The position numbers and the translations under genes are program-made. This document shows, piece after piece, positions 22,037-22,346 of a stretch of 64,000 nt of DNA. Position 1 is the first letter of the stretch. The number at the start of each line of letters is the position of its first letter. Source of the stretch: Escherichia coli (lineage in GTDB: Bacteria > Pseudomonadota > Gammaproteobacteria > Enterobacterales > Enterobacteriaceae); NCBI RefSeq assembly GCF_030013205.1, contig NZ_CP122648.1. One strand, 5' to 3'. The notes beneath the pieces are model-generated. The model saw nothing but the letters and a program-made list of their open reading frames with translations, did not search any database and had not been told where the DNA came from.

Positions 22037-22112
22037 GGCCCTTTAGCTCAGTGGTGAGAGCGAGCGACTCATAATCGCCAGGTCGCTGGTTCGAATCCAG
22101 CAAGGGCCACCA
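22037..22112 (+). tRNA. tRNA with CAT anticodon (Ile2-type or Met)
   Basis: 76-nt cloverleaf ggccctttagctcagtgg...gggccacca; anticodon loop ctCATaa; resembles ileX-type tRNAs. Confidence 0.8.
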
Positions 22113-22113
22113 A

Positions 22114-22190
22114 CCGCCACCAGTTCACCAAGAAAGAGTGTTAACCCTTTAAGTTGAGTGTGCGAGGTTCGAGTCCTCGGTGGCGGTCCA
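22114..22190 (+). other. degenerate tRNA-like element (possible tRNA pseudogene, TTT-like anticodon)
   Basis: Good acceptor stem (ccgccac/gtggcgg), canonical T-arm (cgagg-ttcgagt-cctcg) and CCA, but the D-arm lacks conserved residues. Confidence 0.3.
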
Positions 22191-22192
22191 GT

Positions 22193-22268
22193 GCCGACTT
22201 AGCTCAGTAGGTAGAGCAACTGACTTGTAATCAGTAGGTCACCAGTTCGATTCCGGTAGTCGGCACCA
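22193..22268 (+). tRNA. tRNA-Thr (anticodon TGT)
   Basis: 76-nt cloverleaf gccgacttagctcagtaggtagagc...; anticodon loop ctTGTaa; ends in CCA. Confidence 0.7.
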
Positions 22269-22271
22269 TAT

Positions 22272-22346
22272 GCGGGTATCGTATAATGGCTATTACCTCA
22301 GCCTTCCAAGCTGATGATGCGGGTTCGATTCCCGCTACCCGCTCCA
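22272..22346 (+). tRNA. tRNA-Gly (anticodon TCC)
   Basis: 75-nt sequence closely resembling E. coli glyT; anticodon loop ctTCCaa. Confidence 0.8.

Follow-up and report, generated by a model that had tools for sequence, protein, structure and literature searches.

An unannotated, degraded member of the argN family in a prophage tRNA array of Escherichia coli

The tRNA array and its second slot

The window analysed here is a stretch of 64,000 nucleotides from Escherichia coli (NCBI RefSeq assembly GCF_030013205.1, contig NZ_CP122648.1), which includes a truncated lambdoid prophage carrying an array of four tRNA slots on the plus strand. A preliminary description of this DNA placed the tRNA cluster between the gene for the antiterminator Q and the lysis genes, and Pfam matches bear this out (Q at 20097-20771, two holin genes at 22772-23462 and an endolysin gene at 23459-23842). 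Three of the slots are canonical tRNA genes. Slot 2, the subject of this study, is a 77-nucleotide (nt) element at 22114-22190 and is an unannotated, degraded member of the known slot-2 (argN) family; the array as such is already present in databases.

The three canonical genes had been described as carrying CAT, TGT and TCC anticodons; ARAGORN, Rfam and the Prokaryotic Genome Annotation Pipeline (PGAP, RefSeq) agree on them, and all the anticodon calls are correct. PGAP names for genes of the window were read from identical sequence in the porcine enterotoxigenic E. coli (ETEC) strain ETEC4079, to the chromosome of which, and to relatives of which, the window is 100% identical over 7.5 kilobases. 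Slot 1 (22037-22112, plus strand) is an ileZ-type tRNA with CAT, i.e., Ile2 of the lysidine type (72.6 bits with Rfam RF00005; tRNA-Ile in PGAP). Slot 3 (22193-22268, plus strand) is tRNA-Thr(UGU) (73.8 bits; tRNA-Thr in PGAP), and slot 4 (22272-22346, plus strand) is tRNA-Gly(UCC) (65.6 bits; tRNA-Gly in PGAP). The intergenic spacers of the four-slot array are 1, 2 and 3 nt.

The commonest ileZ-type allele accounts for 207 of 228 sampled copies, and the window copy is a single A57G variant of it. Base-by-base comparison with the E. coli K-12 locus (L246, 302-661) shows that slot 3 is identical to chromosomal thrU at 76 of 76 bases. Slot 4 is identical to chromosomal glyT but for one compensated acceptor pair (C6-G66 to U6-A66), and the commonest prophage Gly(UCC) allele is glyT exactly. 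The host gene order is thrU-tyrU-glyT-thrT; the prophage is without tyrU and the 116-nt spacer, and has only TAT between the Thr and Gly genes. Slots 3 and 4 look like a capture from this host operon. In E. coli 2009C-3133 (L285, 1430-1740), PGAP calls only tRNA-Ile and tRNA-Thr, leaving both an intermediate slot-2 allele and the Gly slot uncalled, which suggests that slot 4 may likewise decay in some prophages. Minus-strand matches to the Rfam family Plastid-ycf2 5UTR (22037-22344; 26-35 bits against a gathering threshold of 65.7) were rejected as antisense-tRNA artefacts, being the reverse complement of the three tRNAs.

For slot 2, a 77-nt element with a perfect acceptor stem, a canonical T-arm and an encoded CCA had been reported, and its coordinates and features are exact on the sequence. 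The acceptor stem (CCGCCAC at 22114-22120 and GTGGCGG at 22180-22186) consists of seven Watson-Crick pairs. The T-arm (CGAGG-TTCGAGT-CCTCG, 22163-22179) has a 5-base-pair (bp) stem and keeps all the T-loop invariants; the discriminator T (U73) at 22187 is followed by CCA at 22188-22190. The D-arm had been called non-canonical, and this is confirmed: the D-stem (GTTC/GAGT) contains two G-U pairs, the D-loop (ACCAAGAAA) is without G18, A18 at 22131 standing in its place, and C8 at 22121 replaces U8. The D-arm is not, however, the sole defect, as an anomaly in the anticodon loop had been overlooked. This loop reads CCTTTAA, with C33 (22147) in place of the universal U33, the anticodon TTT at 22148-22150, and A37 present. 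C33 is common to the whole UUU lineage described below, whereas U8C and G18A are additional changes of the window allele.

The element is called neither by ARAGORN at default settings, nor by a whole-window Rfam scan, nor by PGAP. As had been proposed, pseudogene-type scoring was applied, and ARAGORN with 95% thresholds (-ps) calls tRNA-Lys(ttt) at precisely 22114-22190. With permissive filters and a scan confined to 87 bases, the element scores 29.3 bits with the Rfam tRNA model, for which the gathering threshold is 29. No other Rfam family reaches threshold at the element (E up to 10), the matches to YrlA, small nucleolar RNAs and microRNAs being noise only. Together with alignment and the allele table, these results place slot 2 (plus strand) as a degenerate tRNA in a family that comprises argN, an Arg(UCU) form and a 'Lys(UUU)-C33' form. 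Compared with a canonical elongator tRNA, the element retains the acceptor stem with CCA and the T-arm, but lacks the tertiary-fold nucleotides U8 and G18 and the U33 of the anticodon loop. Compared with a functional tRNA-Lys(UUU), it has the anticodon UUU, but neither descent from Lys tRNAs nor the discriminator A73, which is an identity element of tRNA-Lys.

The slot-2 family and its decay series

The element is 85-92% identical to annotated tRNAs at the same position in other phages, and is thus not a chance resemblance. It follows the ileZ-type end at 22112 after 1 nt, downstream of Q and on the same strand. A megablast search against phage records finds this four-slot array in Escherichia phage isolates, including PhiR47_1, in which slot 2 is annotated as tRNA-Lys; identity is 94.8% over the four-gene array of PhiR47_1, and 85% over slots 1 and 2 for argN of Stx2 (Shiga toxin 2) phages. 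The element and 48 other slot-2 alleles align over 77 nt without a gap. A four-way alignment and ARAGORN calls show that a single gene at a single position has given rise to the element, to argN (tcg) and to the tRNA-Lys(ttt) found in PhiR47_1 and PPompW, all of which are its alleles. The forms found in slot 2 are Arg(UCG), i.e., argN of Stx phages, an intact Arg(UCU), and a common UUU/C33 derivative that is labelled tRNA-Lys(UUU).

The ileZ-argN-argO clusters of Stx and other lambdoid phages (Stx2a_F349, 2851, 1717) likewise lie between Q and the toxin or lysis genes, and have a near-identical first gene. The window element differs from argN in having UUU with C33 where argN has UCG with U33, and in the additional loss of U8 and G18; moreover, Thr(UGU) and Gly(UCC) occupy slots 3 and 4 where the Stx clusters have argO (UCU). 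The preliminary description considered the anticodon set of the window to be unlike the Ile-Arg-Arg set of such phages. The sets do differ, but the element is homologous to argN, and the array is a common, annotated alternative. The tRNA-Lys(TTT) genes of PhiR47_1, vB_EcoM-606R7 relatives, PPompW prophages and PGAP-annotated chromosomes belong to the same lineage as the element, with the same slot, the same CCTTTAA loop and the same Ile2-X-Thr-Gly array. Relative to their commonest allele, the window allele has seven substitutions, which drop it under the thresholds of ARAGORN, tRNAscan-SE/PGAP and filtered Rfam. The Arg(UCU) form, found in Ile2-Arg(UCU)-Thr-Gly arrays, has the same scaffold and anticodon stem, and is the probable ancestor of UUU/C33. 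Unlike the window allele, it has all the invariants, a perfect T-stem, A73 or G73 and scores of 54-59 bits, and is a credible working tRNA-Arg.

IMG/VR was sampled in three ways, using the 3' half of the element, the ileZ-type 3' end, which is blind to slot 2, and the anticodon arm of Arg(UCU). Among the matches listed for the element 3' half, 97 of 124 loci have the order Met(cat)-Lys(ttt)-Thr(tgt)-Gly(tcc) and 11 have Met-Lys-Arg(tct); slot 2 is uncalled by ARAGORN in six loci including the window, and four of these six carry the window allele. The ileZ-anchored sample has 108 usable loci, with Arg(tcg) in slot 2 of about 70, Lys(ttt) in 7 and an uncallable slot in at least 27. The Arg(UCU)-arm sample includes 10 loci with Met-Arg(tct)-Thr-Gly (e.g., L258 and L219). 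In complete E. coli genomes, a full-length slot-2 homologue is present in 739 of 5,426 (about 14%). PGAP names the consensus UUU allele tRNA-Lys, with no pseudogene flag, and skips the intermediate and window alleles. When a single genome of each species was scanned with the ileZ 3' end, no more than three matches appeared (E. albertii, an Escherichia sp. and one metagenome-assembled genome); at the exact-match level, the array is essentially confined to Escherichia. A literature search on ileZ/argN/argO and the Lys-Thr-Gly prophage array returned nothing relevant, the original descriptions being in subscription journals.

In Stx-type Ile-Arg-Arg clusters of the ileZ-anchored sample (L125-L242), argN is often broken, e.g., by replacement or deletion of the anticodon arm or by internal deletions, and broken copies also have a T-loop of GCGGGT or CTCGGGT or terminal acceptor mismatches. 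In seven IMG/VR contigs (L149, 8503-8575; L248-L253), slot 3 consists of the thrU scaffold with TTT (G35U, plus A26G); the gene has an otherwise normal loop (CTTTTAA) and A73, and scores 74.2 bits as a tRNA. As the seven contigs share flanks, they probably represent one event, independent of the UUU switch in slot 2.

The slot-2 forms show a graded loss of tRNA features, as measured by scores with the Rfam tRNA model and by the energy of the cloverleaf minus that of the predicted best fold. The Arg(UCU) form scores 59.4 and 53.7 bits with an energy gap of 1.1 kcal/mol, and argN scores 43.0 bits with gaps of 1.5 kcal/mol (common allele) and 6.4 kcal/mol (Stx2a_F349); in both, the best alleles have lost no invariants. 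The UUU/C33 form, in which U33 is lost, scores 40.4 bits (PhiR47_1 allele) with a gap of 2.7 kcal/mol (consensus allele). The intermediate allele, in which U8 and U33 are lost, is not reported at the gathering threshold and has a gap of 7.0 kcal/mol. In the window allele, U8, G18 and U33 are lost, the score is 29.3 bits and the gap is 11.1 kcal/mol. The window allele is the most degraded full-length slot-2 allele sampled.

Comparison of allele sequences shows that the Arg(UCU) and UUU forms have the same anticodon stem (UCAAC/GUUGA) and are eight substitutions apart, including U33C, C35U, a C at position 63, which causes an A-C mismatch in the T-stem, and A73U. Given this shared stem and distance, the simplest history would start from Arg(UCU) and lead through UUU/C33 and the intermediate allele to the window allele. 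The intermediate allele, found in 18 copies, has U8C, C11U and C4U. The seven substitutions that separate the window allele from the commonest UUU allele are U8C, C11U, U15C, G18A, C25U, C28U and C63U; three C-to-U changes in the window allele turn G-C stem pairs into G-U.

The predicted best fold of the element is not a cloverleaf; it retains the acceptor stem (8 bp) and the T-stem (4 bp) and joins everything else into one long, irregular hairpin (z = -3.96). Four of the seven window substitutions stabilise the long-hairpin fold. In a comparison with random mutants of the consensus carrying seven transitions, 7.8% reach the best-fold energy of the window allele and 36% equal its cloverleaf gap. 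Selection for the long-hairpin fold was rejected, as the difference from such mutants is not significant.

The family as a whole carries the signature of tRNAs. Across a set of 49 different full-length alleles, pairing holds in 95.5% of cells, compared with 29-53% when the partners are slid, and at pairs 7-66, 27-43, 30-40 and 51-63 both sides have changed between the argN clade and the UCU/UUU clade. This level of pairing and these double-sided changes indicate that members of the slot-2 family were once true tRNAs. Diversity at the slot is high relative to its neighbours: 239 copies include 67 distinct alleles, 43 copies have insertions or deletions, length changes or destroyed arms, and the mean diversity is about 0.107, compared with 0.025 for ileZ and 0.019 for argO at the same loci. 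The diversity of slot 2 thus exceeds that of the adjoining slots four- to fivefold, and its constraint is relaxed. Variation reaches beyond positions at which it would do no harm, even into the T-loop. Per-domain diversity (acceptor stem, 0.087; T-stem, 0.122; T-loop, 0.134; anticodon stem, 0.127) reveals no preferential conservation of the acceptor/T-arm half across the slot-2 family.

Prophage setting and codon usage

The array belongs to a serU-inserted lambdoid prophage that spans 7051-26797 of the window and is a truncated remnant. Its integrase gene is frameshifted, and an IS1 lies inside an early DUF1482 gene (PGAP). The gene for the large terminase subunit ends at 26797 and the next gene is host zinT, with no head or tail genes in between. 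dicB and DicF are present within the prophage. In the whole window ARAGORN calls five tRNAs, the two outside the array being tRNA-Asn (5842-5917) and tRNA-Ser (serU, the integration site; 6909-6998). Small RNAs at full Rfam score are DicF (12197-12248, minus strand), RseX (35470-35558, minus strand) and DsrA (43786-43872, plus strand), of which the latter two are host RNAs.

On the plus strand, the order of features is a DUF968 gene, RusA, Q, a promoter-like site, a frameshifted TrmB-family gene, an AraC-family gene, a second promoter-like site, the four tRNA slots, a terminator-like hairpin, the two holin genes and the M15 endolysin gene; an HNH nuclease gene and then the genes for the small and large terminase subunits lie 3' of the endolysin. 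The upstream boundary of the region, Q (plus strand), matches Pfam PF06323 Phage_antiter_Q (E = 1.8e-91) and is named bacteriophage antitermination protein Q by PGAP. The promoter-like site just 3' of Q (20776-20804, plus strand; TTGCAA-17-TATATT) has 9 of 12 matches to the consensus and is a consensus match only; by position, it is a candidate for the late promoter pR'. A second such site (22000-22027, plus strand; TTGATT-16-TATTAT), also a consensus match only with 9 of 12 matches, lies 10 bases 5' of the first tRNA and is possibly the promoter of the tRNA array itself.

Between Q and the array, an AraC-family regulator gene (21297-22010, plus strand; Pfam HTH_AraC and HTH_18) forms an accessory insertion and is adjoined by the TrmB pseudogene (frameshifted in PGAP). 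The top NCBIfam matches of the AraC-family product are YdeO (1.5e-31) and GadX (6.3e-26), both under the curated cut-offs. This gene presumably resembles the prophage-encoded acid-resistance regulators of enterohaemorrhagic E. coli. Downstream of the array, a terminator-like hairpin with a T-run (AACCGCCGTACCAGGCGGTT then TTTTTTTT; 22609-22636, plus strand) precedes the holin genes. The downstream boundary is the lysis cassette (22772-23842, plus strand), the two holins and the M15 peptidase endolysin of which match Pfam Phage_holin_8, Phage_holin_3_7 and Peptidase_M15_4 and are named accordingly by PGAP.

The preliminary description also proposed a comparison of codon usage, and prophage genes were compared with the flanking host genes, which is a small sample. 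ACA is used more in the prophage (0.28, compared with 0.18 in the host; p = 0.018), as is GGA (0.19 compared with 0.11; p = 0.012). For ATA the prophage value is also higher (0.16 compared with 0.11; p = 0.086). AAA shows no such enrichment (0.71 in the prophage compared with 0.73 in the host, not significant), so an extra Lys(UUU) brings no codon-supply benefit. A codon-supply role can therefore explain the tRNAs of slots 1, 3 and 4, and would also fit an Arg(UCU) at slot 2; it offers no explanation for a Lys(UUU).

Fate and possible roles of the slot-2 element

The preliminary description left a choice between a tRNA pseudogene and an unusual phage tRNA. These are the right alternatives, and for the window copy the balance favours a pseudogene-like state. 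The element is most likely an ordinary remnant, a slot-2 tRNA gene under relaxed selection that is pseudogene-like and no longer a working decoder. This reading is supported by homology, position, the graded loss of tRNA features, the relaxed constraint on the slot and the defective state of the prophage. Because the element has lost U8, G18 and U33 and favours a different fold, it is unlikely to arrive at the ribosome as a functional tRNA.

In the UUU/C33 derivative, the transitions U33C and C35U create the anticodon loop CCUUUAA, taken by software for that of a tRNA-Lys(UUU). In the window allele, two nucleotides universal to the tertiary fold are additionally lost through U8C and G18A. The element is probably still co-transcribed with its neighbours in a single precursor, starting at the Q-controlled late promoter, at the site at 22000-22027, or at both. 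RNase P probably still excises it, given its undamaged acceptor stem, T-arm and CCA and the short spacers of 1-3 nt; with such spacers, each RNase P cut would also set the 3' end of the preceding tRNA. The element probably persists owing to its place between useful tRNAs in a truncated prophage remnant, the flanking tRNAs, two of which are copies of host thrU and glyT, being expected to provide additional decoders of AUA, ACA and GGA codons.

Several observations weigh against simple decay. All 21 of the 21 cloverleaf pairs in the element are standard (18 Watson-Crick and three G-U), and its T-loop, CCA and acceptor stem are perfect. The UUU consensus has the A-C mismatch in the T-stem, and the pairing of the window allele is better, all 21 pairs being kept. 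Intact stems are weak evidence in either direction, however, because any C-to-U change in a G-C pair yields a G-U wobble and so preserves pairing. In the IMG/VR scans, the UUU/C33 lineage is found in at least 120 stretches, compared with 34 for the Arg(UCU) form; that it is far commoner than its intact relative is not as simple decay predicts, unless it has hitch-hiked with successful phages. The exact window allele is, in addition, present in 27 records of complete E. coli genomes and turns up in several prophage mosaics.

Of the alternatives to a decaying gene, the one that survives best assigns the element a role as processing punctuation; the spacing makes this plausible, but it is doubtful. 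A non-decoding acceptor/T-arm minihelix with CCA would allow RNase P to cut the Ile2 tRNA from the next gene, and a polycistronic precursor would thereby yield properly matured neighbours. RNase P needs only an acceptor/T-arm helix, and spacers of 1, 2 and 3 nt imply that 3' ends are set by the next RNase P cut. Six of the seven differences in the window allele are in the D and anticodon half, and the seventh, at position 63, perfects the T-stem; yet that half makes up 55% of the sequence, and such a share of the changes is not significant (p about 0.1, the author's binomial estimate), and the best-fold energy is one that 7.8% of random seven-transition mutants attain. Some grossly decayed alleles keep acceptor pairs, a T-stem-like hairpin and CCA, but in several alleles the end of the acceptor stem has two mismatches or the T-loop is destroyed, and family-wide no domain is spared, acceptor stem (0.087), T-stem (0.122) and T-loop (0.134) varying alongside the anticodon stem (0.127).

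A second alternative is that the element is a working, if unusual, tRNA, i.e., a Lys(UUU) decoder on an Arg scaffold that would supplement host tRNA-Lys cut by the anticodon nucleases PARIS AriB, PrrC or RloC of host or competitor defences, as its own anticodon arm would not be recognised as a target. For the window copy this is unlikely. Cutting by AriB is blocked by U39A, A41C or U16C, and phage T5 escapes by means of variant tRNAs (PMC11464382; PMC12409363); the host target reads U36AAUCA41 with U16 (PMC12409363). The element reads U36-A-A-G-U-U41 (22150-22155) with C16 (22129), and is therefore without the published AriB site, but this altered anticodon stem is an inheritance from the Arg ancestor and is not new. 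Thr(UGU), the second target of AriB, is also encoded in the array; being 100% identical to host thrU, it retains the AriB site and U16 and is not an evading variant. The tRNA-Lys(UUU) of T5 shares with the element the anticodon and altered positions 39-41 and 16 (PMC12409363), but it is a true Lys tRNA for which resistance and rescue have been demonstrated experimentally, whereas the differences in the window element derive from Arg ancestry, and its RNA would bear damaging changes.

Further points in favour of a working tRNA come from the family. All UUU alleles retain C33, whereas position 32 may be C, U or A, full-length slot-2 homologues are carried by 739 of the 5,426 complete genomes, and a second, independent switch to UUU has occurred in slot 3 on the thrU scaffold (seven IMG/VR contigs). 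Against this, the discriminator is U73 and not A73, U33 is lost, and the window allele is also without U8 and G18; plainly damaged alleles occur in the UUU lineage, among them 13 copies lacking 1 nt of the D-stem and others with D-stem mismatches or deletions in the anticodon arm. The working-tRNA-Lys reading is somewhat more likely for the consensus UUU allele than for the window copy. That the UUU/C33 Arg derivative is a working Lys decoder, and through its absent AriB site a counter-defence tRNA of temperate phages, is nevertheless improbable. Slots 2 and 3 do switch anticodon repeatedly (slot 2 among UCG, UCU and UUU; slot 3 from UGU to UUU on one occasion), and if the reading were right, the window copy would be a weakened or further diverged form.

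A different structured RNA or a chance look-alike (a Y-RNA-like or tmRNA-like mimic, or a selenocysteine-type 8/5 tRNA) is very improbable: despite the non-cloverleaf best fold (z = -3.96) and a weak Rfam YrlA match (21.1 bits, 22136-22247), that match is far under the gathering threshold of 69 and runs into the Thr gene, Rfam offers no further scoring family, chance mutation yields folds as stable as the alternative one, and the element aligns base for base with the ordinary 7/5 tRNAs of slot 2. Two special cases were considered and rejected. A selenocysteine-type (8/5) tRNA or allo-tRNA, suggested by a possible A22113-U73 pair, is excluded by the length of 77 nt, the 5-nt variable region and the gapless 7/5 alignment. 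Suppression with U34 as the turn nucleotide and UUA as the anticodon is structurally implausible, with nothing in its support.

For the locus itself the result matters little: a gap of 77 nt without annotation in a prophage tRNA array is read as a decaying tRNA gene. The remaining interest is not in the window copy but in a family with an anticodon-switching slot, the commonest product of which is labelled tRNA-Lys on uncertain grounds. Slot 2 evolves at four to five times the rate of the adjoining slots, switches its anticodon and often breaks, so that annotation pipelines label it Arg, Lys or nothing, depending on the allele. The prophage "tRNA-Lys" in databases is an Arg-scaffold tRNA with C33, and its decoding of lysine codons should not be assumed. 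If the UUU form were charged and nuclease-resistant, tRNA-based counter-defence would extend from lytic T5-like phages to common temperate phages.

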